DNA of 62,974 nt, filler included, from Octopus bimaculoides (lineage: Eukaryota), in the NCBI RefSeq assembly GCF_001194135.2. It is 5 parts of 4 records of this genome, joined end to end, with 100 filler letters (N's around TTAATTAATTAA, not from the genome) between each part and the next. Parts side by side here need not be neighbours in the genome. Positions count along the whole stretch, not along the records: positions 14,243 to 46,065 come from NC_068984.1; positions 46,166 to 61,092 come from NC_068997.1; 3 more parts are not named here. One strand, written 5' to 3'. The notes under the pieces were generated by a model. That model did no database searches. It was not told the origin of the DNA and saw only the letters and a program-made list of their open reading frames with translations. Positions 7,725-62,974 of the stretch are shown here, in pieces. Each line of letters starts with the position of its first letter. Position 1 is the stretch's first letter. The position numbers were made by a program, and so were the translations under genes.

Positions 7725-8720
7725 CATACATATACATACATACATATATATATATATACATACACATACATATATGTGCATACATATACATATATATGCA
7801 TATATATNNNNNNNNNNNNNNNNNNNNNNNNNNNNNNNNNNNNNNNNNNNNTTAATTAATTAANNNNNNNNNNNNNNNNNNNNNNNNNNNNNNNNNNNNN
7901 NNNNNNNAGTATATAAATATATATATATATATGTGTGTGTGTGTGTTTGTGTATGTGTTTATATGCTTGTATGTCTGTGTTTGTCCCCCCAACATGGCTT
8001 GACAACCGATGCTGGTGTGTTTACGTCCCCGTAACTTATCGGTTCGGCAAAAGAGACCGATAGAATAAGTATAGGCGTACAAAGAATAAGTCCTGGGCTC
8101 GATTTACTCGACTAAAGACGGTGCTCCAGCATGACTGAAAGAAGTAAAAGAGTAAAAGAGTTGAGGAGTGGAGTCAATATAATCGATAACCCTCTCCCTC
8201 CAAAAACTGTTGGTCTTCGGTCTTAACCAGAAGACTATGCCGTACACATTAAACCTTCTGCATCTCTTCGGTTTCTCTCAATTTTATTCATTCGCTTCTT
8301 TTCTACTCAAGTTGTTGAAGCGGAACTGAAGAGAAATAAGTCAGGCGATAAATAAGAGAATGTAAAATTGATTATTGAACCTAATTATTCAACTAAAGTT
8401 TAGCTTAACTAATAAATTCTTTGAAGATTTTAAAAACAAACTTCCGTTGTACTTCTGAAACATTTTATGTAGGAATTTGGATTTTGACTCATTCAAATTA
8501 GATTTTATTATTTTAAAAAGTTTTACTTACTTTACGCACCAAATTCCAGTTGATGTTATTTAGTTACCATAGTCTAGCAGGCGTCGGTTGTGTGGTAGGA
8601 AGCATGCTTCCCAACTACATGGTTCCGGTTTCTGTCCCACTTGGGCAAGTGTCTTTTGTTATAGCTTCGGGCTAATCAAAGCCTTATAAGTGAATTTGGT
8701 AGACGGAGACTGAACGACGC

Positions 8721-44054: not shown

Positions 44055-45291
44055 GAGGGGTTGGACAAAATAATGGAAGCACCTCAAAATTTGAAACAAA
44101 TTTATTTTAATATGTGGTAGCTCCGCCTTTGGCAGTAATTACAGCTTGAATTGTTTCCAAATGAATTTTTGTCCATTCTCCAGTTCTTGTAGTGATGATG
44201 GTGGAGGATAAAGACACCTTACTTGTTTTTCTAAAATGCACCATAAATGTTCAATGATATTGAGACCTGGCGACTGTGGTGGCCAGATAAGATGTTCAGC
44301 TTCACTAGAATGTTCCTCATGTCATTCGGTAACAACTTTAGCTGTGTGAATTGGTGCATTATCATTCTGAAAGATTGCATTTCCCTCTGGAAACAGCTCC
44401 GCAATCATAGGATGAATTTGATCTGATAAAATGCCTAAATAGTCTTGACTATTAATTCTGCCATGAGGGGAACCCATTGGAGTGGCAGATTTCCAAGATA
44501 TAGCCCCCCCTCCACCTCCCGATCTTCACAGATCCTCCTCCATGTTTAACAGTTGGAAGAAGGCAGTCTGGGTCAAATGCTTCTATTGGCTGTCTCCACA
44601 TGTATACTCGGCTGGTGGTCGGAAATAAGGTAAAGGATGACTGGTCCGAGAAAATAACATTCTTCCAATGTGCTAGGGACCAATTCGGTAGGTTTTTACT
44701 TCACTCTAAATGCTTTGCAACATTTGCTTTTGAAAGTAGTGGTTTTCTGATTGCAGCCTCCTGAGAAATCTGGCTTTATGCAGCTCCCAGTGAACAATTT
44801 TTGTGGAAACTGGGTTCTCAGGGTGGTCATTAAGCTTTGTAGCAATTTTTGGAGCTGTACTTTTGTGGTCCTTTCTATTAATTTGCATAAGATTCCAACG
44901 GTCCCTATCTGAAAGTTTTGGTTTTCTTTCTGATTTTGTTTTGACGAGGAGGTTTTTCTGTTTCTCAGAGGCTGTCATTACTTTTGAGAAAGTGCTTCTT
45001 GATACATCAAACATTTTGGCTTTTTTGTGATGCTAGCACCTGCCATACGAATGCCAACAATTTGACCTCTTTGAAAATCTGATACATCTGTCATTTTAAT
45101 GAATTTTAATTACATTTTCCTGATGATATCTGAAAAGAAACAGCAATTTTAGCAAAACATATTAAAAAGAAACAGCAATTTTAGCAAAACACTAATAAAT
45201 CAAAAAACACAAAATAAACAAGGTTTAGATGGTTTTATAGATATTTCAAAATTATGATGCATTGTGTTTCCATTATTTTGTCCATCCCCTG
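44055..45291 (-). mobile_element. Near full-length degenerate Tc1 DNA transposon
   Basis: Inverted termini (gagggg ttggacaaaataatggaagcac / tgtttccattattttgtccatcccctg) flanked by TA on both sides. The minus strand encodes Tc1-like transposase fragments (VSRSTFSKVM...RKPKLSDRDRWNL...STAPKIA...VSTKIVHWELHKARF) with stops and frameshifts. Confidence 0.9.
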
Positions 45292-45309
45292 TATTTGCTT
45301 ACATATTAA

Positions 45310-45370
<61 letters not shown>

Positions 45371-46037
45371 TGTCTATCCTTATTTGTTTGTGAAATGAAA
45401 TTTATATTTTGCTTATGGCTCATCAAGTTTATATATATTTCTATGTGTCAGTTTTTGTGTTTATTAAATCTTTACTTCTTAGTTCTATCATTCTTCATAT
45501 CTATTTGCATCTCTATGAATCTGCTTATATGTATCTTTTGATCCATTGGCCTTGTCTGTCCATACCGAGGAAGACATTATGAATATTGACAGAGGGAGCG
45601 TTTATGAAGTATATGGCATTACAGATCTTCATTTTGTAGGTATATGAAAACATCGAATTTAGACAGGAGCTTCCATTCTCTTCATTACAACTTTCAATGA
45701 TATATCATTTTGACATTGTGGAGAATAAAACTGTAGCATTTCCCAAGCCAATATTAATTCGAAGCTTAAATTTTCTCCAAGGTGGAAGCATGAACTTGTA
45801 CACACTTGTAGAAATCAGGCATATAAATAAAAGTTCCTTTAATTCCTACATATGTTTCATTGTCAAGGTTTTTTTAAAAACTGAGATAATATTAATATAT
45901 ACATAAACTAATTATATTAATATATATATATAGAACGTTTGGTTCTTTTCTCTAAAACTGTATATTTATATATTTTATACTGTGAAACTTAATTTAATTT
46001 TAATTTTTTATTAAATTGCATTTAATTGACTTTTTAC

Positions 46038-46165
46038 CTGTAAATTTGGATTTTTATCCCTAATANNNNNNNNNNNNNNNNNNNNNNNNNNNNNNNNNNN
46101 NNNNNNNNNTTAATTAATTAANNNNNNNNNNNNNNNNNNNNNNNNNNNNNNNNNNNNNNNNNNNN
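46038..46165 (-). CDS. SAFB-family paralog B, possible exon 5 spanning an assembly gap
   Basis: A strong acceptor ttttttttatttccag| abuts the gap at 46166. On the far side ...ATT AGG GAT AAA AAT CCA AAT TTA CAG|GTAAAA (IRDKNPNLQ) ends at 46038. True length and frame are unknown because of the Ns. Confidence 0.5.
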
Positions 46166-47731
46166 CTGGAAATAAAAAAAATAATTCAACATCAGTATTC
46201 TACATCATTCAGTTACACAAACCTATATTACACACATCTGAACACAGACTAAAACAGTTTCACACAACTGTGTATGACATGACATTGAATTAATTAAACT
46301 ACACTACATAATACTGATACACACTGGACTAGTGTGTATAACAGTATCATTTAAAACTTCAGTCTAAAATTCAGTTACACACACCTGAATATGAGGACAT
46401 TGTATTGCATATTAACTAGTGATTACATTGGCAGAAAGGGTTCTAATACACTTCTTGCCCATATGATATGTTACTGTGAAGAGTGTAACTTGTCAGCTCA
46501 GCAGACAGAGATAAAACAATCTGCTAAGGAGAATAACACACCTAATTTATTTACAGTATAAAAAGTTATTATGACTGATACATCTCCCGGTATTATCACC
46601 CATGTTCTTGCAAGAATCATCATCATTTAACATCTGTCTTTGATGCTGGCATAGGTTGAACAGTTCGAAAGGATCCAACAGAACTAGAGATATGCATCAA
46701 ACTCCAATGTTAGATCTGGCATGGTTACTACATTTCAGTTGCCTTTCAAAATTCCAACCACTTTACAGAGTATACTGGGTGCTTTTTCCATAACACCAAC
46801 ATGAGGGAGGTCACCAAGTAACTTGCAAGACAAAGGAAAAGAACCCAGCACTGAATGGGATTGTAGCAGAGTTGGAAGTTATGCCAGGTGTTCAGAGGCC
46901 AGAGTATGATAGAGAGACAGGCTCAGGTGTCTTCTTCTAGAGAAAATAAATGGCTACACCGACATAATGTAAAGGTGGGTGGGAGTAAGTGGAAAGAAGA
47001 CAGTGATGGTAGTGACAAAGAGTCAGAGAGTACTCTCAAGACAAAACAAGGTGAGTATAGGAGAGAATATGGACAGCAGGTGAGGACAGATGGGTGGGTA
47101 TGTTAATCAGAATGAGAAATGAGAGTAATAACAGATGGTTAGAGAAGGGGGTAGAGATGGATGTAGTGAAGGAACAATGCTGGAGGTGTGGTTGATCCGT
47201 AAATATCAGTATGAGAAGGGAAAGGAAGGTGGGAGAAATTGGAATGGCTCAAGAAGGAAGAGGTGACGAGTGGCAGTGCAAGAAGGGTGGAAAGCAGCAG
47301 TATAACAAACCTGTAGATAGACCAGAAAATAAAGAGATTATGAGTGGGGAGGCTCGAGAGAGAGAGAGATGTACAGTGACAGAGATGAATGTCAGAAGTA
47401 TGTAGAGATGACTATAGAGAATGGGAGACAAAGGTGTGGGGAGGCCATCAAGAGCAGACCCAAGACGGTATGACAATTATAGTAGATACAAGAAGATGGG
47501 GTATGGCAGTCTTAAAGTGTAGCTCAGAAAAGGAGAGAAAGCAATAAGTAGAGGCAGAAAGAGAGGTGATCAGTCAACAATAAAATTTGAAACACAGACA
47601 ACTCAATATATACATACACACNNNNNNNNNNNNNNNNNNNNNNNNNNNNNNNNNNNNNNNNNNNNTAATCTTAACACACATAAATGCATATACAAAATCT
47701 GTATCATTAGTTATATAATTCTGATACTTAC

Positions 47732-47786
47732 TAATAATATCTTCAGTAGATTGATTTTCTTCCAGATATTTCTCTTCACAGAAAGC
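47732..47786 (-). CDS. SAFB-family paralog B, probable exon 4 (acidic linker)
   Basis: Acceptor gacaattttag|, donor A|GTAAGT. 55 nt, phase 0 in, reads AFCEEKYLEENQSTEDII, an acidic composition like the SAFB post-SAP linker. Confidence 0.72.
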
Positions 47787-48352
47787 CTAAAATTGTCAAA
47801 ATATCAAGTTAACCAAATAAAAAAGTCCACATACACATGACATTCTGTATGGCTGCTAAAATGTCTAAAGTGACACATTAAATAATTTGTTATGTAATTA
47901 TATATAATTTGTTGTATGTAATTAGAATGAGATGCATGAGAGAGAGAGAGAGAGAGAGTGAATTGATGTAGGAAGGAAATGAAAGTATTCTCAGAAAAAT
48001 GCTGATAGAATACATCTGTGAATTCTATTCAAAATCAAATTAATACAATTAACTGCCTTTTAATATTTACTTGTTTCAGCCATGGGTTTCATTGAACAAA
48101 TTGCTCCTAGTACTTACATCTTTAAGTCTTGCACTAATTGTATTGGAGTGATTTTCCAAACTGTAACATTATGGGAATGTAAACAAACTAACACTGGCTG
48201 TGAAACAGCATGGGATGAGAATGGGGCAAAATTCTTCAGTGGTATTTTATGTAATTTAGTGAAATTCTTGAGCAAGACTAAGTTGAGATAATTACAAGTC
48301 CAAAAAAACTTAGAAATAAATTTAGGAAAAAAAAGAAAAAGAAAAAACTCAC

Positions 48353-48381
48353 CTCAATGTTTACCAACGTAGCTAAATTAT
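48353..48381 (-). CDS. SAFB-family paralog B, probable 29-nt exon 3
   Basis: Acceptor gttcttgttatttttcag|, donor GAG|GTGAGT. Phase 1 in and phase 0 out match the neighbouring exons; reads (D)NLATLVNIE with no stop. Confidence 0.72.
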
Positions 48382-48649
48382 CTGAAAAATAACAAGAACA
48401 TTTGATTAAGAGGAATGAAATGAATATTAAATTTGATTTCTAATTGTAAATTAACCTATATATAATAGAATCATGTCATTTTCTTCAAAGATTAAAACGC
48501 CAGCAAATTCAGTACCAGCAAGAAAGTGTGCATTCATGGAGATGGAAGGATGGGTGAATAGCTGGAACTAAATACATGTATATTTATGAGATGTGTCATT
48601 AGTTTGTATAAAATATTTAAATTGAATCGAATTTATAATTGTTTTGTGT

Positions 48650-48683
<34 letters not shown>

Positions 48684-49099
48684 CATATAATATAAATAAT
48701 ATATATAATATAATATAATATATATATATCTTCTTTCATTCTTTTACTTGTTCCAGTCACTGGACTGAGGCTATGCTCAGGTACTGCAATGAAGGGTTTA
48801 GCTGAAAAATTCTACCCCAGTGCTTATTTTCTCTAAGACTGGGACTTTGGACAGCTTGGACTTCTAGTAGNNNNNNNNNNNNNNNNNNNNNNNNNNNNNN
48901 NNNNNNNNNNNNNNNNNNNNNNNNNNNNNNNNNNNNNNNNNNNNNNNNNNNNNNNNNNNNNNNNNNNNNNNNNNNNNNNNNNNNNNNNNNNNNNNNNNNN
49001 NNNNNNNNNNNNNNNNNNNNNNNNNNNNNNNNNNNNNNNNNNNNNNNNNNNNNNNNNNNNNNNNNNNNNNNAACCAAAATAAATGACATGGAACTGCAC

Positions 49100-49154
49100 C
49101 TGATTTCTCTTCACTTCCTTTGGTATCTTTATGATTTTCTTCACTTTTCAGAGC
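49100..49154 (-). CDS. SAFB: SAFB-family paralog B, coding exon 2
   Basis: Acceptor ttttgttatctcttttccacag|, reads ALKSEENHKDTKGSEEKS, donor G|GTGCAG (phase 1). An alternative weaker phase-1 donor T|GTCATT would end the exon at 49088. Aligns to paralog A exon 2. Confidence 0.85.
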
Positions 49155-49559
49155 CTGTGGAAAAGAGATAACAAAAGCACTAATGAGTTCCTTCAATCTC
49201 CATTAGCACAACATCTATATCAATTGTTGGTACAGAAACCATTAGATATCTGAAGTAACACACACACACGCTATCAATCTATTACCATCTGGTTTGCAAT
49301 GCTGGCACAAATTGTATCAGTTTGTTATTTAACTAATCAATCATCTTAGTTTTAATAATAGGAATTATAGCAATAAGTGTGTGGTGACTCCTCTCTCGTG
49401 GGACCAGTTTTAAAGGGTGGGAACCATTTTCCTTCAATCCTAGTTAAACCTTTTTTGGTTTTTGCTTTTTAAATCATATTTCTGTTGAAATACACTGTGT
49501 TTGTTGCAATTAATCGTGAAAATAACAAAAGACTCAGTAAAAGAACTGTTCATTATTAA

Positions 49560-49700
49560 ACTGGTATTTGGGTAAATGGTTAATGAGAGTAGTGCACACC
49601 GTATGTACAGAGATGCAGACAGCAAAGTGAGGGCTGGCAAGGAGTTCAACAAAGAATTTGGAGTGCAAGTAGATGTTCATCAGGCCTCAGTTCTTCGCGA
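49560..49700 (+). mobile_element. Short RTE reverse transcriptase fragment in paralog B intron 1
   Basis: KWLMRVV..MYRDADSKVRAGKEFNKEFGVQVDVHQASVL, homologous to the 28355 copy. Confidence 0.75.
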
Positions 49701-51226
49701 GGGCCTTTAAATTTACTTTGTCTCATTCCTGGTAATAAAATTAGTTCCCTACATATTTTCTGGCTATGTTCTTCACCACACACCGTATAGTTTGGTCTAA
49801 AAAGATTGAATTTTTATGTAGGATGTAAAGATTTAGGTGAAAAATTTAAAAAAAGAAAAAAGAAAAAAAAGCTTTTAAATTTTCTTAAAAATTTAACAAT
49901 TCTTCACCAGTTCATATAAAATGCTATTCTTGCTTTTTTTGAAGCCGATTTTCATCGTTTCAGGCTCGGTAAAAGAAATTGCTATTGGATACTGAGATGC
50001 GTAAATATTAAAATGTCACGAAAGAGGCAGAAGGACAAATCTTATGCTTAAAAACCGATTTTTTTTGTTTTTTGTTCAATTACGACCTGTGTCAAGTATT
50101 TTCATACCTAAGTATAAAGGGAAAATCTGGTTATCTAAGGGTCTGGAAACTGATTAAAATTATTTTCTTTCATAATTGTTTCAACTATGGGGAGAAGGCC
50201 TGAACATTTGGAGGAGGGAGATAGTCGATTACGATGACCCTCTGGTCAACTGATACTTATCTTAATCAACCCCAAAAGGATGAAAAGCAACGTCAATGCC
50301 GGTGGAATTTGGGCATACCTAAATAAGTAATTTTTTGTATTTAGTTTACCAATTTCATACGCACACATATACACATAACCTACACCATCTGAAGCGGACT
50401 TGTAGAAAATCCATTTGGGGGCGGGGATTATGAGGAAACAAAGTGGATGGGAAAGAAAACACTTATTTAGATATGCCGAAATTTGAACTCGGGACAAAAT
50501 GCCGCAAAGCCTTTTGCCCAGCGTGTTAACGTTTCTGCCAGCGAGCTGCCTTTATCTTCTTTTATAATATCGTTTATCAGCATCCAAAGACCACGAGATG
50601 GCAGAATCGATGTGTCACTTCAGATCCTAGACGTTCTGATTTCAAATTCTGCCGAAGTATCTATCAACTTTGCACTTTATCTTTTATTAGTCGATAAAAT
50701 TAGTACCAGTTGAGCACTTAGTCAATGTAACTAACTGATTGACCCCTTCCTCACAAAATAGCTGGCCGTCTGCCAACACTTGAAACCGTTATATTCTCAT
50801 TTTCGTGGTTAGATGAAGAGATCGGAAGCAAACTGAAATTATGATTACATCCTTATACGAGTCGGAGCGAGATTATGTAAAATTGAATTTCATGAGAATT
50901 AACGTAAATAAGGAAGTGTTAATATGGCCTTGTTTTTCTCGTTTAAATTTTCATCTCTTATAGAAATAGATCTTTACAGTATGCCAAATTTATAAAAGGA
51001 ATGATGGGAGGAGGACGGGAGTTCTGTTTTAAATGAGAATTCCAAATATTTCAGAATGTGGGGTGGGGTATAATAAAATGGTTAAAACTAATGAAGGTAG
51101 AAACGGACTATATGTAATCTGAACCTTTCTCCCCCATATTTATTAATTTTTTTTACGGAATCCCACGTTTTAGGCTATGGATTTCGATTCCCCCCCCCCC
51201 CGGTTTTTATATAGATCCACAGGGTA

Positions 51227-51327
51227 AACCTAACCCTAACTCAAACCCTAACCCTGACCGTAACCCTGACCCTAACCCTTACATGCTAGAAATAACAGCC
51301 AAATCTCAGAAAACTAGTGTTAGGGTT
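51227..51327. repeat. Degenerate (CCCTAA)n telomere-like repeat
   Basis: aacctaaccctaactcaaaccctaaccctgaccgtaaccctgaccctaaccc, then ttagggtt in the opposite orientation just before a gap. Confidence 0.6.
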
Positions 51328-52164
51328 NNNNNNNNNNNNNNNNNNNNNNNNNNNNNNNNNNNNNNNNNNNNNNNNNNNNNNNNNNNNNNNNNNNNNNNNN
51401 NNNNNNNNNNNNNNNNNNNNNNNNNNNNNNNNNNNNNNNNNNNNNNNNNNNNNNNNNNNNNNNNNNNNNNNNNNNNNNNNNNNNNNNNNNNNNNNNNNNN
51501 NNNNNNNNNNNNNNNNNNNNNNNNNNNNNNNNNNNNNNNNNNNNNNNNNNNNNNNNNNNNNNNNNNNNNNNNNNNNNNNNNNNNNNNNNNNNNNNNNNNN
51601 NNNNNNNNNNNNNNNNNNNNNNNNNNNNNNNNNNNNNNNNNNNNNNNNNNNNNNNNNNNNNNNNNNNNNNNNNNNNNNNNNNNNNNNNNNNNNNNNNNNN
51701 NNNNNNNNNNNNNNNNNNNNNNNNNNNNNNNNNNNNNNNNNNNNNNNNNNNNNNNNNNNNNNNNNNNNNNNNNNNNNNNNNNNNNNNNNNNNNNNNNNNN
51801 NNNNNNNNNNNNNNNNNNNNNNNNNNNNNNNNNNNNNNNNNNNNNNNNNNNNNNNNNNNNNNNNNNNNNNNNNNNNNNNNNNNNNNNNNNNNNNNNNNNN
51901 NNNNNNNNNNNNNNNNNNNNNNNNNNNNNNNNNNNNNNNNNNNNNNNNNNNNNNNNNNNNNNNNNNNNNNNNNNNNNNNNNNNNNNNNNNNNNNNNNNNN
52001 NATAATTTTCTTTCAACACTCAGACGTTTATTTTGATCTGTTTGACATTTTTGCATGAGTTTTCAAGGTTCAAGAACCCCCCAACATTGTTTATAATTAC
52101 AACACTATGCCATTATATATATATATTATACATAAACACCGTCGCTCATTAAGATCTCTCCTAC

Positions 52165-52299
52165 CTTTTCCAGACGTTCCAACAACACGGCCTTTACTCC
52201 AGTTTTGTCCAGACCTCGTTTCTCCAGTTCACTGCGGAGATCCACGACCCTTAAATCTATTAACTTGTCACTGGATATCTCACCACTTGCACTGGCCAT
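52165..52299 (-). CDS. SAFB: SAFB/SLTM-family protein, paralog B, coding exon 1 (SAP domain)
   Basis: Reverse strand: ATG at 52299, 45 codons [45 protein letters not shown], phase-0 donor AAG|GTAGGA. It shares 40/45 aa and 113/135 nt with paralog A exon 1, with the same exon length and intron position. Confidence 0.92.
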
Positions 52300-52457
52300 G
52301 ATATAATATATGTAAGTGAATGTCGAGGTTTGTTAATCCAATGGTTTCACACTGAAGCAAAAACTTGGTTAGGACGCAATTTACTGTTTCAATATTTTCC
52401 TATATAACAGTTATCTCCCTTCTTTCCGTGGTGACGTTGAAGCTACTTTTATTGTCG

Positions 52458-52471
52458 CCACCAGATGGCAC
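52458..52471 (+). promoter_or_regulatory. CTCF-consensus-like site
   Basis: CCACCAGATGGCAC matches the CTCF core consensus CCASYAGRKGGCRS at all positions. A partial counterpart (GCCATCTGG) lies at 53416-53424. Confidence 0.5.
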
Positions 52472-53008
52472 AAGCGTGAAACCTAATATCCGTCATATTC
52501 ATAAGGAACCCCCCTCCTCCCACTAGCTTTGTCCTCTTTTACGGAACTCTACGTTTCCGATAATTTTGTCACAAGGCGGAAATCGAAACTTGGTGGTTGT
52601 CAGTTTTTGACATTTTAAAATGAAATGGAAATGTTCAAATTTGATGTTTCGCTGTAATTTGTCACGTTGAATCTGAATTGAATCATTTATTGTAGAAAAA
52701 TATCAGAGAAGTGTTACTAAAGTTTGATCATTTTTAGCCAATCAGAAAACAAGAAAAGGTGCGCGTTTTCTGCGTGATGAGATAACTATGACAGTTGTAC
52801 AAAGTTTTAATAAGTTTTATTGAAAGAAGTTATGTAAAACGAATGGTCGAACATATAAACAACTGAAAAAGGGAAAAGCCTCGACGAAATTTTTTTCGTG
52901 GCAATAAAAAAAAAAAGAAACCGTGAGTCAATTACTGTAAAAGTCGGTGAGAGAAGTGAAGAGCAAAACGCGCGCGGTCAGACGCACCCATTTGTTTTCC
53001 TGTCTTAT

Positions 53009-53350
53009 GTTGTTGTTGGCACCCCGTCGCTTACGACGACGAGTGTTCCAGTTGATCCGATCAACGGAACAGCCTGTTCGTGAAATTAACGTGCATGTGG
53101 CTGAGCACACCACAGACACGTGTACCCTCAACATAGTTGTCGGGGATATTCAGCGTGACACAGTGTGACAAGGCTGACCCTTTGAATTACAGGCACAACA
53201 GAAACAGGAAGAGTGAGAGAAAGTGTACAGCAGGAGCTTTTAGGTGTTTTCGCTCAATAAACACTCACAACACCCGGTCTGGGAATCGAAACCGCGATCC
53301 AATGACCGCGAGTCCGCTACCCTAACCACTAGGCCATTGCGCCTCCACAC
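53009..53350 (-). mobile_element. tRNA-derived SINE inside the SAFB bidirectional promoter
   Basis: The reverse complement begins GTGTGGAGGCGCAATGGCCTAGTGGTTAGGG (A box), has GTTTCGATTCC (B box) and ends in an (AAC)n tail. Same family as 57918-58290. Confidence 0.85.
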
Positions 53351-53579
53351 ACCATATAACACGACAGTGAAACTTCGTTACTTGCTGACCGTGACGCTCT
53401 CGACGCCGAGGAAGCGCCATCTGGGAAATTGTCTAAGGGAGACAATTTCGTAAATCCGGGTAATTTTAACGAACAGACGAGATTTTGTGGAACTGAGTTT
53501 GATGTGTCGCCATTAAATCAGTGACAGCAATTCTAAAGGTGTTTTGACAATCACAATACATAGATATATATCATATATC

Positions 53580-53714
53580 ATGGCTAATGCTAATGGAGAA
53601 ATATCCAGTGATAAATTAATAGATCTAAGGGTTGTGGATCTCCGTAATGAACTGGAAAAACGTGGACTCGATAAAAGCGGAGTGAAGGCCGTATTGTTGG
53701 AACGTCTGGAACAG
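53580..53714 (+). CDS. SAFB: SAFB/SLTM-family protein, paralog A, coding exon 1 (SAP domain)
   Basis: ATG at 53580, 45 codons [45 protein letters not shown], then a phase-0 donor CAG|GTAGGG. The LRVxDLxxELxxRxLDxxGxKxVLxxRLxxA pattern is the SAFB/SLTM-type SAP domain (family recognised from memory, not searched). Confidence 0.9.
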
Positions 53715-54672
53715 GTAGGGGAGAAATAAATGACTTTATGTCCATGTCTGTGTGCATGAAAGGGAAAGAGGTTTATGTCGCTGCTTATCTTGTCGAGAGA
53801 TTTTCTTTTCTTTCAAATGTGAAAATGAATATTCACGAATGAACGCCTCCTCCTCCCTGCCTGTCTCGCTTATTGTAAGATGTATTTTTGTATTTTTCGT
53901 TGTTGCTGAAATCGTCAGAACCAAAAATTTGAAAAAAAAATGGAAAGACGAAAACTTGTCACATTTCTCATCCATTATTCACTGCGGTCCTCTACTTCCG
54001 TTCTTCATTCATTTCTGTTGTACTTTCTACAATTTCTAAGTTTTTTTGTTTTATTAACTCGGTTTCTTCTTAGGATTACATGAAACGTTTGGTTTTAGAA
54101 TCTTCAGCGTCTACATACAGCATTAAAACCGATCAAATAATCAAAGTTTACTAAGCCATTTAAGAAAAATCATAGGGGAAGGTCATGGTGGGTGAATGAC
54201 GTCGTTTACCAACATCGACGGATTGTCAAATTCTCTATGCCGGCAACATGTTTTCTGATCTCTGTTATTATTAAGAATGGCCAGAGCAGCAGACGAAGTG
54301 TCTTCAGTCAAAAAAAGTTTGAATAAGATTGAATAACACGTTCGTTGGTCGCATCTCCAGCGTCTACATACACCATTCTTTTATTCAATCTTCAGAACGA
54401 TTATGTATCCGAAAAAATCTTCCGGAGAAACACTTGATGCGCCGTCTGAAGAAAATTAAAATTATTGGCGAAAAATGGGTATGTTACACGTGTACATCGA
54501 CTTGGCAAAAACACCCATTAAATCGCATTTAGCCGTACTTTTAGTGTTTAATATCTGGGTGTTAAAGTAGATATTAACCATATTTTATAGAGGAAGGATG
54601 TTGAGGGGCTTCTTGAAATGAAGTACACTCTTCGACAACTTTGTAAGCTTTAGCGCCGCAGAGACCTTAAAG

Positions 54673-56231
54673 GGTTAATATCTACTTTAACACCCGACCA
54701 CCAAAACAAAGAAAAAGAAATCATGCGTAATAGGTGTAAAAAAGGTGTAGTAAAAGAATCTAAAAACCAAAATTTGCGCAAACGAACCAAAGGTGGGGAG
54801 AGAGGAGTTTCGGAAAATTCGCACGATCCAATATTTTTTCCCCTTGTAACTTTCAGGAAAGTGGATATCTTTCGATGAAATTTTATAGAAATATCTTTCA
54901 AGCTGCATAGGTTAGAAATTTGTGGGGAAAATGTTTTTCCTAGGTAGTACGGAGAAGATTTTGGGTAAATTCACATGATCCGATTTTTTCCCCCTTAATA
55001 ACTTTCAGGAAAATGGGTATCTTTTGTTAAAAGTTTGTACAAATATTTTTCAAATGGCAAAGATTACAATTAATGAAGAAATTTGTGGGGGAAATTTTTC
55101 CCANNNNNNNNNNNNNNNNNNNNNNNNNNNNNNNNNNNNNNNNNNNNNNNNNNNNNNNNNNNNNNNNNNNNNNNNNNNNNNNNNNNNNNNNNNNNNNNNN
55201 NNNNNNNNNNNNNNNNNNNNNNNNNNNNNNNNNNNNNNNNNNNNNNNNNNNNNNNNNNNNNNNNNNNNNNNNNNNNNNNNNNNNNNNNNNNNNNNNNNNN
55301 NNNNNNNNNNNNNNNNNNNNNNNNNNNNNNNNNNNNNNNNNNNNNNNNNNNNNNNNNNNNNNNNNNNNNNNNNNNNNNNNNNNNNNNNNNNNNNNNNNNN
55401 NNNNNNNNNNNNNNNNNNNNNNNNNNNNNNNNNNNNNNNNNNNNNNNNNNNNNNNNNNNNNNNNNNNNNNNNNNNNNNNNNNNNNNNNNNNNNNNNNNNN
55501 NNNNNNNNNNNNNNNNNNNNNNNNNNNNNNNNNNNNNNNNNNNNNNNNNNNNNNNNNNNNNNNNNNNNNNNNNNNNNNNNNNNNNNNNNNNNNNNNNNNN
55601 NNNNNNNNNNNNNNNNNNNNNNNNNNNNNNNNNNNNNNNNNNNNNNNNNNNNNNNNNNNNNNNNNNNNNNNNNNNNNNNNNNNNNNNNNNNNNNNNNNNN
55701 NNNNNNNNNNNNNNNNNNNNNNNNNNNNNNNNNNNNNNNNNNNNNNNNNNNNNNNNNNNNNNNNNNNNNNNNNNNNNNNNNNNNNNNNNNNNNNNNNNNN
55801 NNNNNNNNNNNNNNNNNNNNNNNNNNNNNNNNNNNNNNNNNNNNNNNNNNNNNNNNNNNNNNNNNNNNNNNNNNNNNNNNNNNNNNNNNNNNNNNNNNNN
55901 NNNNNNNNNNNNNNNNNNNNNNNNNNNNNNNNNNNNNNNNNNNNNNNNNNNNNNNNNNNNNNNNNNNNNNNNNNNNNNNNNNNNNNNNNNNNTGGTCTTC
56001 CCAATCCGAAACTTTTCTCCCCACCCCCTTGGAAAAAGTTTTCCTCACAAATTTCTTTACAGTATATTTGCAATCTATGCCTTTTGAAATTTATTTGTGT
56101 AAACTCGTTAAAAGGTACCTGTTTTCCTGAAAGTTATGCAGGAAAAATCAGATTGTGTGAATTTTCCAAAAGTCCTCTCTCCACATTGTTTGTTTTGTTT
56201 TGGTGGCCGGGTGTTAAACTAGATATTAACC
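54673..56231. mobile_element. Foldback-type element with long inverted arms and ~150-bp internal subrepeats
   Basis: The left end ggttaatatctactttaacacccgaccaccaaaacaaa pairs with the right end tttgttttggtggccgggtgttaaactagatattaacc. The arms keep aligning inward; the subrepeat starts at ~54816 and ~54968; the centre is a gap. Confidence 0.75.
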
Positions 56232-56455
56232 TAAAACAATTTATCAACAAAACCTCTTCTATTATGTCTCAACACAGACTATGTAACCACACTCAAGCAG
56301 ACGACCAATCAATAGAAGGGTTTCTACTAGACCTGAAAAGCCTTGCTATAAAGTATCACATACAATCTCTAATAGCAGAACAACACTGTGACTTATTAAT
56401 TCATGACGCTTTTGTCTCAGGAATAAATTTCTCGACCATTCATCCATGGTTACTG
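56232..56455 (+). mobile_element. Ty3/Gypsy gag fragment
   Basis: Reads QADDQSIEGFLLDLKSLAIKYHIQ...LIHDAFVSGINFSTIHPWLL, matching the Gypsy gag pattern Q..xxSIxxFxxxLxxLA...LIRDxFVxG..IRxRLL. Confidence 0.7.
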
Positions 56456-57008
56456 AAGACTAAAGGTCTTTATCCATGTAAGGTGTTGTTAATCTGTTTG
56501 GTGGGATGTGGAAGGTTTGGTCCATTTTGAACTTTTAAACCCAAACCAAATGATAACAAAGGAAATCCACTGCAAGCAGCTTGAGTGGCTTAAGTCAGTG
56601 GTAGAAGAAAAATGACCATCTTTGGTTTCAAGACAAAAGGTGTTCTTCCATCTGGATAATGCTTGGCCACATACAACGAGGATGACATTCCAAAGGCTGG
56701 AGCAGTTTGAATGGGAAACGATGCTCCACCCACATTGCCCCATCTTATTATCATTTATTCCAGAGTCTTCAAAATCCTTTGGATGGAAAAAATATGAATT
56801 CTGTAGACGGGTCAGAACAGTACTGGAGGAATATTTTTCATTATGAACAAGTGAATTTTGGAAGAGGGGGCCTTGTAAGTCTACCAGATACATGGAAGAG
56901 CATTATAGAAAACGAAGGGGAGTATATTGTAGATTAAAAAGAACTTTATCTTAATTTTGAAAAATAAAAGAAGTATAAAAAAACCACATTATTTATAGGA
57001 TGACCCAA
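56456..57008 (+). mobile_element. 5'-truncated mariner transposase relic
   Basis: Frameshifted motifs WWD...VHFELL, FHLDNAWPH, IAPSYYHLFQSL and LPDTWKSIIENEGEYIVD*, then a TIR-like end ending gacccaa followed by TA. Confidence 0.88.
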
Positions 57009-57917
57009 TACGTTCACTTTTCCACATAGATAGATAATGTTAAAAGTATATGAAGAAAGTTTAGTCCTCCATTATAATTTGTCATTCTTTTATTTTGTTG
57101 TTTGTAACAATTGGTCTATTTATATATAATATAATATGATATAATGTTTGTTTGTTTGTGTATGTAGACAATAAATTTTTGTCTGATTGCAACAGTTGGT
57201 GCTCTTGCAGAATACTTGCATAAAATTCAGCATTTATTATTTCTGCAACTGTCTGCCAGTAATGTTTTATGTATTTATATAGGCCTTTCACTTGACATAT
57301 CATTCAAAAATAAACAAGAATGTTGTTGACTTAAAATGGGTTCCAGGCGATAAAACTTATGTGCTAAATTCTTTTTGGTTCCTGCTGATTAAACTACTGT
57401 GACATCTACATAGGGTTATTTTTATTTCTTTCATATAGGCACAGGAGTGGCTGGCTGTGTGGTAAGTAGCTTGCTTACCAACCACATGGTTCCAGGTTCA
57501 GTCCCACTGCGTGGCACCTTGCGCAAGTGTCATTCATTTAATTGGGAGTACTAAACTGCAAAAAAAAAAAAAAAAGAACTACACTACAGGGTCACCTAAC
57601 TTGTTAGAAATCAGAGTCCAAGCATCTGTGAAATCACACTCAGCTTAAGAGAAAGACACATTGGGAAAAGCCATCCCAGTTTCACAAAAAAGATAATTAC
57701 AACTGAAGCTTCTTTGATTATAGCTCTTTCTCTTTTAGGGAGCTAAAAGAATTAATAACAGGTTAAAAGCAGTGTAATGTTACAGTGAATTTGAGTGCCA
57801 TATTTATTCATAAATAATGCCTACTTAACTCTGAACTACGAAATCCCAGAAAAAATATCTCCTGTATATTATATGGACTGTTTCTTTTTTTTTTTTCTCT
57901 ATTAGTGTTAATGCTGT

Positions 57918-58290
57918 GTGGAGGCGCAATGGCCCAGTGGTTAGGGCAGCGGACTCGTGGTTTCGATTCCCAGACCGGGCGTTCTGAGTGTTTATCGAGT
58001 GAAAACACCTAAAGCTCCACGAGGCTCCGGCAGGAGATGGTGGCGAACCCTGCTGTACTCTTCCACCACAACTTTCTCTCACTCTTACTTCCTGTTTCTG
58101 TTGTGCCTGTAACTCAAAGGGTCAGCCTTGTCACACTGTGTCGCGCTGAATATCCCCGAGAACTACGTTAAGGGTACACGTGTCTGTGGAGTGCTCAGCC
58201 ACTTGCACGTTAATTTCATGAGCAGGCTGTTCCGTTGATTGGATCAACTGGAACCCTCGATGTCGTAAGCGATGGAGTGCCAACAACAAC
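57918..58290 (+). mobile_element. tRNA-derived SINE with 17-bp target-site duplication
   Basis: A box TGGCCCAGTGG, partly deleted B-box region and (AAC)n tail. Flanked by the exact TSD attagtgttaatgctgt at 57901-57917 and 58291-58307. Confidence 0.9.
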
Positions 58291-58677
58291 ATTAGTGTTA
58301 ATGCTGTATATAAAAAAGTGTTTAGTCAGATTTATTAAAATTAATTATAGACTGTAAAAGTATTGAACCAACATGGACAGATATAAATTACAATACGGGA
58401 CGGAAACACTTCTTTGAACACTTCTGTTTTAAAATTTTTTTCATTATCAAATTTCTTTTTTTCTTTTTTCAGTAGGAACGTATGTAATGACACTTCATTT
58501 TAATAAAATAAAGCTTTTGAACTGGACCTTCAGTTTCTTTCCCACCTGTATTTATTTGTAGGCATTGATCTGCCAATATAAATGATGGGTAGTGGCTGTA
58601 TTGAAATTACAGGTGTAAGGACCTGCAAAAGCATAATGTCTCCCTTTTTTTCCCTAAGTTAGCAATATACATGCATG

Positions 58678-59153
58678 CAGGGTGTTTTAGAATTAACTAT
58701 CTATTTCAATGAAATTGGGCAAATTGTAAAAAAAACTGACAGATACCAAAACAAAAAGATTTATAAATCTTACATTAAAACTTTATTGAAAATGTTCAAC
58801 ATGTGCTCTGTCTGTATCCCTGCGAATTTCAAATCTATCTTTTGAAGCATTTCAGGAGTTAACTCCTGCACTGCTAACTGAATGCGTTCTTTAAGTTCAG
58901 CTAAGCCGTTGGTCTATCCTGGGGATGGAAGTAGAGAAAATGATTGCAGCCAAACTGAAAAAAAAAAAAAAAGCTCTTGTGGACAGGTAAGTGAGATCCA
59001 ACAGGAATGAAAATAAAATTATAAAAATATAGACAAAATTAAAAATTTATACACTTTTAACACATATTAATCATGATAAATATAAATAAAAGTGAGTTTT
59101 TAAAAAAATTTCCTGATTTCACTGAAATAGATAGCTAATTCCGGAACACCCTG
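58678..59153 (-). mobile_element. Internally deleted Tc1/mariner-superfamily element (MITE-like)
   Basis: ~40-bp TIRs cagggtgttttagaattaactatctatttcaatgaaat / atttcactgaaatagatagctaattccggaacaccctg. The minus strand keeps the transposase C-terminus LAELKERIQLAVQELTPEML...AHVEHFQ*. Confidence 0.8.
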
Positions 59154-59244
59154 TGTGTATAATATATATATGTGTGTGTGTGTATAGATGTTGTGATACA
59201 TATGAACCTAACAATGCCGACTTGACTTTTATCTATTTACACAG

Positions 59245-59317
59245 GCTCTAAAAAGTGAAGGAGGAAGTCTTGAACATACCGAAAGAAATAGAGAAAAAGC
59301 AGATACAGTTCCAACCA
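59245..59317 (+). CDS. SAFB: SAFB-family paralog A, coding exon 2
   Basis: Acceptor ttttatctatttacacag|, 73 nt reading ALKSEGGSLEHTERNREKADTVPT in phase 0, donor A|GTGAGT. It completes the SAP helix (RLEQ-ALKSEGG, compare vertebrate RLKQAIEEEGG) and aligns to paralog B exon 2. Confidence 0.88.
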
Positions 59318-59349
59318 GTGAGTTACATTTTGTCTTAGCTATCTTGAAG

Positions 59350-60250
59350 TTCCATTATCTTTGGTGGTGCTCTTGACTGACTTCCTTATATACGTACAGG
59401 AGTGATGAATATATTCTATTGTTATGATTTACATTAAAAATAGTGCTTGTGCAATTCAAAGAAAATCTTTGATAGTTGCAAGGACATCTGTGCTCTTGAT
59501 TTTATTTTGGAAAGTTAACTTGCAGCCAAGTATTTAATCCCACTCAATACACAGAGGAAGTGGTTGACTATAGGAGCAGTTTTTGTTGATCTGACAGCTG
59601 CTTATATATGATATGATTAACTGCCATGTATTGTTAAATGATATATAGTTTAAAGGGTACGAATTTCATATAATTTATCTTTGTTATGATAGGAAATAAA
59701 CACTTCTTTATGATTCTGGGTAGCAAAAATGGATGTACATGAATATTATAAAGTGGTCTACTCCAGGGTTGCATGATGGCTCTTTTGTTTGTTTAACATC
59801 TGCTCAAATGATCACCCAAAATGTTTTATCTATCCCTGTGGTATATGCATAGCATACCAAAGACAAAATTTCAATGAAATCTTTTGATGAGTTCTACTTT
59901 AAGCAGTCTTAGCTCTTGTATAAGAACAATGACTTAATTGTTAAATTCATGAAAAATGCAGGTCTCTGAAGTCTATCTTAGAAGGAATTGCGTAGTTAAA
60001 TATATCATGGTCTGAAAGAAAAGTCGAATACTACAAGATTCCCTTGTATCTTAGTCTGTGACAAGACTATAGTCTCAGCAACTCTCAGTTGGGTGCAAGT
60101 CATCAAACATTCAGAATAACTGAATTGGCTCCATAGATCTCACACTTTTGTCACAGGAAGGCAATAAATTGCATAACAAAAGAATTTTCTGCTCACTGAC
60201 TGCTAGGAATTAGCAATGTCATTGCTGACGTGCATAATATATACAGTGAC
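59350..60250 (+). mobile_element. Degenerate non-LTR retrotransposon reverse transcriptase fragment
   Basis: GAVFVDLTAAY... and a decayed GLxQG...FNIxxND pattern; clade not assigned. Confidence 0.55.
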
Positions 60251-60509
60251 AGCTCTTTAGTATTATGATGTATGGAAATAGGAGAGGATTTGTTGTCTCA
60301 AATGCATTGTAAAAGTTCAAATATTATGAACAAAACAAAAGCAAATTTGAAGGTAACCTTTGAACTTTACTGGTACAGCTGTAATAATGCACTTGCTGTA
60401 AAGTCAACGTACAATAAATGTGAAAGTTCACTTGTTAATTCAATAATACATATTCTCTTTTACTTAAATTTTTCTTTTGCTTAGTTAATTGTTATTATTA
60501 TTATTATTA

Positions 60510-60734
60510 TTAATCCTTTAGCATTTAAACTGGCCATATCTGGCCCGAATATTCTACCAGTTTTATGATGAACTTGACCAGATCAGGCCTCTTGTGCCTA
60601 CAATGACATTCTAGAAATAAACAATCACATGGTTCATCAAAATCTCAAAGCTACAAGTTAATGCATGATTAATTCAAAACAATGTGAATGAATAGGCTTT
60701 ACATTTGACAGTAATTTAAATGCTAAAGGGTTAA
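60510..60734. mobile_element. piggyBac-type MITE (TTAA-bounded), copy 3
   Basis: ttaatcctttagcatttaaa ... tttaaatgctaaagggttaa: TIRs with TTAA at both ends. Confidence 0.8.
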
Positions 60735-60932
60735 GGCAGCAATATAGCGGAATTGTCAGGGCATCGGACGAAGTGCTTGGTGGCATTTCTTCCAACTCTT
60801 TACGTTCTGAGTTCAAGTGTCACCCAGGTTGACTTTGCCTTTTATCTTTTGATGGTTGATAAAATAAATACCTGTCGAGTACTGGGGGTGGGATGGGTGA
60901 CGGGTGATGCAATCAGCTACCCCACCCCCACA

Positions 60933-61092
60933 TTTTAAAATTGCAGCCTTGTCTAAAATTTATTAAAATTGCAGCCTTGTCTAAAATTTATTAAAATTGC
61001 AGCCTTGTCTAAAATTTGTTAAAATTGCAGGCCTTGTCTAAAATTTATTAAAATTGCAGCCTTGTCTAAAATTTATTAAAATTGCAGGCCTT
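60933..61092. repeat. 28/29-bp minisatellite grown from a SINE tail
   Basis: Unit attaaaattgcagccttgtctaaaattt, about 5.5 copies, running into a gap. No spacers. Confidence 0.9.
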
Positions 61093-61363
61093 NNNNNNNN
61101 NNNNNNNNNNNNNNNNNNNNNNNNNNNNNNNNNNNNTTAATTAATTAANNNNNNNNNNNNNNNNNNNNNNNNNNNNNNNNNNNNNNNNNNNNAGGACAAT
61201 GATGAAAAGGAGGGGACTAAGTGTTCAGTTGTTCATCAAGGCGTGAGCCTTGATGAACAACTGAACACTAATACACACACAAACACTAAATGCAATAAAC
61301 ACAGACACACATAGGGAGTTAGACAAACAGAGTTAGATCACAATGATTATAATGCATGCTTAT

Positions 61364-61396
<33 letters not shown>

Positions 61397-61489
61397 CACA
61401 AACACATGCATATATTAGGTAGAGAGCTCTGAAAGGGGTTTCAGGGAGTAGTGTCCCTACCTTCCTGAGCTAGTTTCCCACTACATTTC

Positions 61490-62660
61490 TTAAAAATCGT
61501 GGTCGAGGCCTTGGTCTCGAGACCACCCATGTCTAGAAACTGAGGTTGGGGGTAAGCAAGGACATGTCCTTCGTAGAAAATCCAGCTCCAAAAATGCCTC
61601 ATCATTGCAAAGGAGAATGGGTACTAGCCAGCCCAAAGGTTGGGCGAGGGTTGCACCTGCCTACCTAAAAAGGGAAGGTGCAAATCTTTATCCTGGGTTG
61701 CACAAGCATGACTTGCCTTATGATGGCTGATGGCCTGAGGAGAAGCTTGGTGTGAGGTTGGGAAGTTGGAACGTGGGCAGTTTGCATGGAAGGGGAACTG
61801 AGGAAGTGGGGGTGGATGTGTGCTGTGTGCAGGAGGCCAGGTGGAGGGGCCAAGGTGCAAGGTTTGTGGTGGTCAAAGGAAGAAGGGAAGAAGTTGTGGT
61901 GGTCCGGAAATAGCAAGGGGACTGGAGGTGTGGGAGTTTTGGTGAAGGAAGAAATCTGTGAGGTGGTGGTGGAGGTGAGGAGAAAGAGTGACAGAGTGAT
62001 GACAGTAGTGTTAGCATTTGAAGTGGTGAGGGTGATTTGTGGGTTAGGGTCTGCAAAGTGGAAGAGGGATCGCTGAGAAAGAGCAGTTCTTTGATGAAAT
62101 GGGGTGAATGAGTGGGACTTACATAAGGTGGATGAATTGGTATTGGGCATGGGTGATTTTAATGGACATGTTGGGAAATGGATCCAGAGCTTCGAGGGTG
62201 TGCATGGGGGGGGGGAATGGAATTGGGGAGAGAAATGTGGAAGGAAGGATGCTGTTGGAGTTTTGTGATGAGAAAGAGTTGTGACTTTGAGTGCAGGAGA
62301 GAATGAGACAGAGACTGATTCCCTGTTGGTTGGCAGGAAAAACAGAAAATATCTGAGAGATGTGAAGACAAAACCAGGGGAGTTGCAGCACAGCTTTGGT
62401 GGTTGCTGACTTGGATAAGAGGAAAGTAAAAAAGTGTGTGAGAAAGGGAACGGTTGAGGGGAGAAAGGTGTGGAAACTGAAGGAAGAAGAAAGAAGAGCA
62501 AGGTTTGAGGAGAGAGTTGGGGAGTTGGTTAGCATTGATGCACTGGATCTGTGGAAGTCTTTTAAAGAAGGGGTACTAAAGGGATGTGACGAAGTGTGTG
62601 GGAGGATGAAAGGAGATATGTGGTGGTGGAACGAGGAGGTGAGTGATGCGATAACAAGGT
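61490..62660 (+). mobile_element. RTE LINE 5' portion (AP-endonuclease region)
   Basis: Frameshifted WNVGSL, DVCCVQE.RW, KLWWSGNSKGTGGVGVLVKEE...RRKSDRVM, MGDFNGHVG and WWWNEEV motifs. Confidence 0.85.
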
Positions 62661-62974
62661 AGAAGGAGGCAAACTATTTATGAAATAGTCTGGGTTATTA
62701 CATACAGTGTCCATACACTGAAACAATGGACAGAAAGATCCAATGCTCTCTGATCCATGATTATTATTATTATAATTATTATTATTGTTATTATTATTAA
62801 GGTGGTGAGCTTGTAGAATTGTTAGCATGCCAGGTAAAATGCTTAGTGGTATTTCATCTGCTGCTACATTCTGAGTCAAAATTCTGCTTAGGTTGATTTA
62901 ACCTTTCGTCCTTTTGGGGTCAAAAAATTAAGTACCAGTTATGCATTGGGGTCGATATAATTGACTAGTCCCAA

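Follow-up and report, generated by a model that had tools for sequence, protein, structure and literature searches.

Does the octopus genome contain a pair of SAFB genes arranged as in mammals, and how did such a pair arise? Human SAFB1 and SAFB2 are separated by about 500 bp (PMC4582101), the fly has one SAFB gene (PMC2857882), and invertebrate SAFB is described as single-copy in that paper and in PMC10901741. A sequence-only reading of DNA from Octopus bimaculoides had proposed that an independent inverted duplication recreated the mammalian layout as a two-gene locus. The whole stretch of DNA concerned, 62,974 nucleotides with filler, is referred to here as the window.

Divergent first exons A and B

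Two SAP exons of 135 nt (45 codons) each were found in divergent orientation, at exactly the coordinates and on the strands proposed earlier. The distinguished features are as follows.

52165..52299, minus strand: copy A coding exon 1, with ATG, SAP domain and phase-0 donor (Pfam, codon alignment)
49100..49154, minus strand: copy A exon 2, 55 nt, AG/GT (splice sites, reading frame)
48353..48381, minus strand: copy A exon 3, 29 nt, AG/GT, missed in the sequence-only reading (splice sites, reading frame)
47732..47786, minus strand: copy A exon 4, 55 nt, AG/GT (splice sites, reading frame)
46166..46190, minus strand: polypyrimidine-AG acceptor-like site adjoining a scaffold join of unknown size at 46066-46165 (sequence inspection)
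53580..53714, plus strand: copy B coding exon 1, with ATG and SAP domain, the N-terminus of XP_014769867/8 (Pfam, protein match)
54437..54478, plus strand: alternative first coding exon of B, for a form without SAP (public models XP_014769869, UniRef A0A0L8HS79)
59245..59317, plus strand: copy B exon 2, 73 nt, AG/GT (splice sites, RefSeq protein match)
52300..53579: spacer of 1,280 bp between the two ATGs, a candidate divergent promoter region (exon ends, composition)
52002..54750: CpG-rich island across both first exons (CpG observed/expected 0.86-1.38 vs 0.47 for the window)
53004..53362, minus strand: SINE-like insert within the spacer (a second copy at 57905-58295 is 78.6% identical)

Both first exons match Pfam SAP (E 6-8e-11), carry atatc directly 5′ of the ATG and close with a phase-0 GT donor; the common intron position and phase and the intron starts quoted earlier were seen in A and B alike. 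The second-exon regions are homologous, as had been claimed (49171-49089 vs 59229-59313, 75.6% over 86 nt, E 8e-8). A recount of the exon 1 codons gave the same figures as before, i.e. 16 synonymous changes and 5 conservative replacements (S/N in three cases, T/S and K/Q), with 24 codons identical. By the NG86 method, pS was 0.55 (bootstrap 0.35-0.75) and pN 0.048, corresponding to JC-corrected values of about 1.0 for dS and 0.05 for dN and a dN/dS of about 0.05 (Fisher p 2e-9 for silent vs replacement changes). As judged from these codons, both first exons have been under purifying selection, in agreement with the earlier claim. DNA homology between the copies (83% over 168 nt) extends into the intron for about 19 nt and, 5′ of the ATG, for just 12-14 nt or so. 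No gap interrupts the piece that carries the two first exons (52002-55103), so their divergent orientation is independent of any scaffold join; the link between exons 1 and 2 crosses an N gap in A and in B.

Exons 1-2 of B match an O. bimaculoides RefSeq protein over 69 residues, and B is 100% identical to XP_014769867/8, annotated as SAFB. The central RRM (RRM_1 in XP_014769867; 63/76 identical to the primate RRM) is followed by an ER-rich repeat, visible on inspection, without a profile, in the B protein and in the orthologues of A. On the protein match, the B exons in the window encode the start of a complete protein with SAP, RRM and ER-rich repeat.

Exons 1-4 of A are in frame with canonical splice sites and form 91 open codons; two O. 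sinensis SAP+RRM paralogs each share 87 of the 91 residues with A, so that two types tie as nearest to it. The exon 1 protein is identical (45/45) to full-length paralogs of O. sinensis and O. vulgaris. By these comparisons, A begins a gene that belongs to a younger paralog group, whose members are about 90% identical to one another. No SAFB exon past exon 4 was found within the window's 46 kb downstream of it. Exons 5 onward being absent from the window, the full-length A rests on its orthologues and on the scaffold join: the acceptor-like site at 46166..46190 is probably the start of exon 5, the rest of which would be lost in the gap. The RRM exon of A falls outside the window, and this domain is seen via the closest orthologues alone.

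Assignment to the SAFB/SLTM family, and to a cephalopod, was borne out by the identity of B and by a SAP-exon search, in which 14 of 25 matches were named SAFB or SLTM, 3 were uncharacterised and 8 unnamed; none of the 25 was named Acinus or hnRNPU. A and B also group with SAFB/SLTM in trees, which were built without Acinus or hnRNPU rows. Acinus (ACIN1), named earlier as the alternative, carries an RSB motif besides SAP and RRM; this identity was rejected, as Pfam gave only SAP and RRM families in 10 cephalopod proteins (E 0.01). A PDB sequence search with SAP returned only the SAP domains of hnRNPUL1 and MKL1 and is uninformative on family.

The spacer between the start codons

The criterion for a bidirectional-promoter pair (divergent genes, start sites within about 1 kb) concerns start sites; the 1,280 bp measured here, between ATGs on opposite strands, is a distance between start codons. 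The insert of about 360 bp, in which a tRNA-like head and a (CAA)n tail were recognized by eye, is presumably a SINE, judging from the usual SINE anatomy. Its head had no match in Rfam, which gave 6 matches over positions 44000-62974, all far under gathering scores. Likeness between the upstream regions of A and B was not clearly above that of shuffles, in local (score 29 vs 27±3.5) or global alignment (102.5 vs 81±10, shuffle maximum 112.5). A sigma-70 promoter scan gave chance-level matches, with a bacterial-type model that is not applicable to a eukaryote. In O. vulgaris, B is modelled as a fusion with a DUF7041 gag-like ORF lying upstream, which the window lacks; this hints that the region 5′ of B differs between species.

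An octopod cluster with its own origin

The view of a two-gene locus did not hold: judging from public proteins, A and B belong to an Octopus cluster of five to six such genes. In three Octopus species, five to six SAFB paralogs were found on one chromosome, a placement drawn from the fact that all models of a species trace to a source sequence of the same size (O. vulgaris accessions CAI9735048-56); order and orientation outside the window likewise come from accession numbers and source-sequence sizes, not coordinates. O. sinensis has six distinct C-terminal signatures (58-92% pairwise identity) and four SAP-bearing starts against six 3′ ends. In public models of two species one 5′ end is joined to different 3′ modules, and because some models mix parts of different paralogs, the six could be five. 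Paralog types recur across the three species, and trees group them by type. The RRM of the canonical copies is 62-65/76 identical to the primate SAFB2-type RRM, while two paralogs have a strongly altered RRM (31-33/76 identical to the primate RRM). Between insects and primates, the SAFB RRM hardly changes.

Trees were built with FastTree (LG+CAT) or IQ-TREE (LG+G4), without a mixture model. P0119, a primate protein under the label SAFB1, carries a SAFB2-type RRM; in the AU tests of the mammalian and SLTM groupings it was replaced by ruminant SAFB1 halves. The octopod clade (100/100) and the clade of non-B copies (100/99) were recovered in IQ-TREE; the sister clade of B comprises five or more other copies, A among them. 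Thus the prediction that A and B would be sisters outside the vertebrate SAFB1/2 split stands as to their position outside it, but not as to sisterhood. Grouping of an octopus copy with mammalian SAFB1 or SAFB2 was rejected (p-AU 5e-66 and 7e-103), as were pairing with SLTM and pairing of either cuttlefish copy with octopus copies (p-AU 7e-6 to 4e-5). There was weak rejection (p-AU 0.017) of a tree in which Argonauta is sister to the non-B copies; its placement relative to B had a support of 54/17, and Octopus monophyly a p-AU of 0.48. As far as trees can show, all octopod copies go back to a single ancestor that the vertebrate and cuttlefish duplicates do not share, and the octopus gene is co-orthologous to SLTM as well as to SAFB1/2. 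Since common ancestry with SAFB1/2, SLTM and the cuttlefish duplicates is rejected, the head-to-head layouts of octopus and mammals arose independently; the earlier claims of an origin separate from mammalian SAFB1/2 (AU p < 1e-60) and of a pair not ancestral to bilaterians are upheld.

Cuttlefish and argonaut have at least two models each, apparently from their own separate duplications. When the divergent cuttlefish copy served as query (46 matches from 8,000 candidates), no octopus match fell beyond the known cluster. We found no paper discussing the octopus SAFB expansion, though the genes are already annotated, and SAFB terms had no match in the searched supplementary files of PMC9115989 (4/8) and PMC9476566 (12/22).

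Origin of the layout and its meaning

The locus probably marks the inverted junction in a tandem cluster of SAFB/SLTM-family genes specific to octopods, seeded by an inverted duplication at the promoter. Near the Octopus-Argonauta split, the single gene would have been duplicated in inverted orientation, with the break falling within the CpG-rich promoter, so that two start exons came to lie about 1 kb from each other. B may have kept near the ancestral form, while the A-side lineage would have duplicated on to three copies with canonical RRM and two with remodelled RRM; a SINE presumably inserted into the spacer. The likeness to mammalian SAFB1/2 appears to be a real convergence of layout, most simply explained if a break at an open promoter gives two expressed copies at once, the layout itself not being selected.

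It is unlikely that selection rebuilt a co-regulated pair on one common bidirectional promoter to restrain LINEs. The divergent start exons within one CpG-rich island, the independent origin, the human spacing and the repeat content of O. vulgaris (12.9% LINE, 11.6% SINE; PMC13282606), which confirms the genus as LINE-rich, are consistent with such selection, but there are five to six paralogs instead of two, the SINE-like insert splits the spacer, and the DUF7041 fusion marks the O. vulgaris model of B. We consider it very improbable that the pair is older (coleoid or bilaterian), its age masked by gene conversion between the arms. The two cuttlefish copies lie on the same scaffold under close accession numbers (CAE1316075/76 and 81), and the two Argonauta copies are 97% identical; against this, the cuttlefish, mammalian and SLTM pairings are rejected, the fly has one gene, and B is only 58-71% identical to the other octopus copies and was therefore not recently homogenised. 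There is, finally, very little chance that A is an orphan or truncated 5′ fragment (pseudogene or misjoin). Besides the missing downstream exons, no public O. bimaculoides model among those seen contains A's exact exons, but the four in-frame, canonically spliced exons, the 45/45 identity to full-length paralogs, the acceptor-like site where exon 5 is expected and the 5′-truncated, RRM-bearing models numbered next to B (XP_014769865/6) all argue for a working gene.

The inverted junction shares with the mammalian locus divergent paralogs, a short spacer and the SAP+RRM+ER-rich layout. It differs in its longer, SINE-bearing spacer, its independent origin, and its place in a larger cluster with two remodelled RRMs. 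Family, domain order and orthologous group are common to octopus and to Drosophila Saf-B and other invertebrate SAFB/SLTM pro-orthologues, from which octopus differs in copy number. Octopus also has tandem expansions of protocadherins and C2H2 zinc fingers; the SAFB cluster resembles these in local duplication and divergence, but is small and derives from a normally single-copy housekeeping RNA-binding gene.

According to PMC10901741, Saf-B of the fly recognizes a purine-rich motif and binds L1/LTR RNA, binding of purine-rich and transposon RNA and suppression of exonisation extend to human, mouse and fly, and SAFB1 and SAFB2 cross-compensate. By analogy, the canonical octopus copies most likely act as in flies and mammals: SAP would tether them to DNA, the RRM and ER repeat would attach to nascent RNA rich in purines and keep cryptic splicing down, also within transposon inserts, and the copies would be largely redundant, adding dose. 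More speculatively, and with low probability, the cluster might be a diversifying RNA-level transposon-control arsenal grown from a re-created head-to-head promoter, with two RRMs rebuilt for other RNA motifs, tracking LINE/SINE bursts, and A-type promoter/SAP exons possibly spliced to alternative RRM/C-terminal modules.

The RefSeq/GenBank models of Octopus named “scaffold attachment factor B1/B2” and “SAFB-like transcription modulator” include B, and A matches their N-termini; those of O. bimaculoides are fragmented, and the automatic B1/B2/SLTM labels do not follow orthology and are misleading. The same 2024 study (PMC10901741) presents SAFB as a somatic anti-transposon defence encoded by a single gene in invertebrates. 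Three coleoid lineages depart from this, it seems each on its own. Octopus can serve as a natural experiment on two questions: do SAFB dose and RNA specificity change together with transposon load over evolution, and has selection favoured the head-to-head layout, or does this layout follow incidentally when duplications occur at promoters? For binding assays, the paralogs whose RRM is remodelled are the obvious candidates.

Divergent SAFB first exons

Two SAP-domain exons open divergently oriented genes, copy A on the minus strand and copy B on the plus strand, separated by a 1,280-bp spacer. They lie where the sequence-only reading had placed them, and the details it described were all recovered: both copies have the atatcATG context, phase-0 donors and like intron starts, and their second exons are 75.6% identical over an 86-nt alignment.

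52299-52165, minus strand: SAP exon of A (Pfam SAP)
53580-53714, plus strand: SAP exon of B (Pfam SAP)
54437-54478: alternative first exon of B, skipping SAP, based on public predicted proteins (models)
46166: acceptor-like site on the A side, adjoining a join

The codon pattern also agreed with the earlier description: among 45 codons, 24 are the same, 16 differ silently and five carry conservative replacements (dS ~1.0, dN 0.05; Fisher p 2e-9). Both exons are under constraint. Both sit on a single piece free of gaps (52002-55103), so scaffolding did not create their divergent orientation; the surrounding unit (46166-61092) is flanked on both sides by joins of unknown size. The window combines several smaller scaffolds, with uncertain adjacency over its four 100-bp linker joins (7808-7907, 14143-14242, 46066-46165 and 61093-61192), each composed of 44 N, 12 fixed bases and 44 N.

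A and B belong to the SAFB/SLTM-type family. The SAP exon query gave 25 matches (70 candidates), 14 of them named SAFB or SLTM, three uncharacterised and eight without a name. Acinus was not supported by the Pfam domain search. The product of B exons 1-2 equals residues 1-69 of O. bimaculoides XP_014769868, whose longer isoform contains SAP and RRM domains (Pfam) and an ER-rich tract. Copy A has four exons with AG/GT ends, yielding 91 open codons with 87/91 identity to each of two O. sinensis paralogs; its closest relatives are canonical-RRM types. No exon after the fourth was found within the window, and the remainder of A presumably lies in another assembly piece, the likeliest continuation being XP_014769865/6, 5'-truncated RRM models of O. 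bimaculoides with accession numbers adjoining that of B.

The spacer lies inside a CpG-rich stretch (observed/expected 0.86-1.38 versus 0.47), as would be expected for an unmethylated promoter. Sequence comparison of the A and B upstream regions revealed no clear likeness. Two CTCF-like motifs occur at 52458-52470 and 50591-50603 (plus strand), against 0.13 expected in shuffles, the pattern having been picked after viewing the site. One lies ~160 bp upstream of the A ATG, and a related core, AGATGGC (~53414-53425, minus strand), is found at a like distance upstream of B.

Several repeats accompany the locus. A SINE-like insert occupies ~360 bp of the spacer, with a copy in the first intron of B at 78.6% identity; the intronic copy (57905-58295, plus strand) has a direct repeat of ~15 bp on either side that looks like a target-site duplication. 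Inverted ~150-bp repeat units flank a gap in the same intron (within 54673-56231), and A intron 1 contains a degenerate telomere-like short repeat (~51220-51285). Transposon remnants of the window include one reverse-transcriptase fragment (Pfam RVT_1); the others gave no Pfam match and by eye resemble Tc1/mariner and LINE endonuclease pieces.

28352-28693, plus strand: transposon remnant
~44100-45130, minus strand: transposon remnant
56400-57000, plus strand: transposon remnant
61700-62700, plus strand: transposon remnant

A cluster of Octopus paralogs

Rather than the two-gene locus originally proposed, C-terminal signatures, accession runs and grouping by type revealed a cluster of five to six paralogs. 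Octopus SAFB proteins are numerous among public matches (in one search, 120 of 1,965 matches listed). Six distinct C-terminal signatures (types B, A', D, F, C and E; 58-92% identity overall) were distinguished in O. sinensis, and pieces of five types in O. bimaculoides, which has four distinct SAP exons, the two of the window (A and B) and those of protein rows P0007 and P0012 (species inferred for the latter). The O. vulgaris models span accessions CAI9735048-56, and for the longest contig all NCBI models within each species share one size. Since the same types reappear from species to species, and trees cluster full-length sequences by type, the copies are loci rather than alleles. D parts are mixed with E in some O. 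sinensis models and with F in some O. vulgaris models, through either mis-joined similar exons or real alternative use, hence the range in the paralog count.

In an O. vulgaris model, a DUF7041 gag-like ORF without counterpart in the window is fused upstream of B (rows P0031 CAI9735052 and P0032 O. sinensis XP_036366107), which may mark a retroelement inserted close to the junction in the vulgaris group. Two cuttlefish copies (51% identity) lie on the same scaffold; the cuttlefish model CAE1316081 (P0058) contains two tandem RRM segments (58 and 65 of 76, one more diverged), reflecting either a duplication inside the gene or a third copy merged into the model. The two Argonauta copies (97% identity) could be uncollapsed haplotypes.

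Origin of the head-to-head layout

Trees were built under LG+G4, with long branches among the rows. The 17-row tree, excluding isoforms and O. vulgaris rows, united all octopod copies (100/100) and placed the other five types in a clade apart from B (100/99), with no well-supported placement for Argonauta. Pairings of cuttlefish with octopus copies were rejected in all three such tests (p-AU 4e-5 or lower), while cuttlefish copies as one group (68/55) were neither shown nor rejected. In the 20-row tree, mammalian SAFB1 and SAFB2 grouped together within chordates, alongside SLTM. Grouping of B with SAFB1 or with SAFB2, and of non-B copies with SLTM, was rejected (p-AU < 1e-50 in each case), so the layout arose independently of that in mammals, as had been proposed. 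By these trees, the octopus genes are co-orthologous to SAFB1, SAFB2 and SLTM together. Fused muntjac and sheep models (P0062, P0063), each with two SAFB1-type halves, hint at an extra tandem SAFB1 duplication in ruminants.

We consider it probable that an inverted duplication with a break inside the promoter gave rise to the A and B start exons, that further tandem copies were added afterwards on the A side, and that the octopus copies function like fly and mammalian SAFB. A co-regulated pair maintained by selection seems to us improbable; an older pair that underwent conversion is considerably more so, and the view that A is a fragment is marginally the least credible.

PMC10901741 describes fly and mammalian SAFB as binding purine-rich RNA and suppressing transposon exonisation, with cross-compensating paralogs. 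According to PMC13282606, the O. vulgaris genome comprises 12.9% LINE and 11.6% SINE, with many families recently active, which makes a link between SAFB and transposons plausible.

Remodelled RRMs and significance

Over 76 residues compared with a primate SAFB2-type RRM, identity is 62-65 for types B, A', D, F and Argonauta, 56-68 for the eight non-cephalopod invertebrates compared, and 31-33 for types C and E. In C and E the loop following the second RRM strand is rewritten and one RNP1 aromatic residue is altered; the Pfam RRM_1 score is kept despite this divergence. The RRM of the second cuttlefish copy has also diverged (52 of 76).

The octopus SAFB genes already carry automatic annotation, which makes them no novelty in databases. 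Literature mostly outside subscription journals, covering best matches and, in part, supplements, yielded no study of SAFB in cephalopods. It is common for a tandem expansion to include one inverted junction, and the convergence by itself is therefore modest. What is notable to the specialist is the departure from single-copy status together with the remodelled RRMs.
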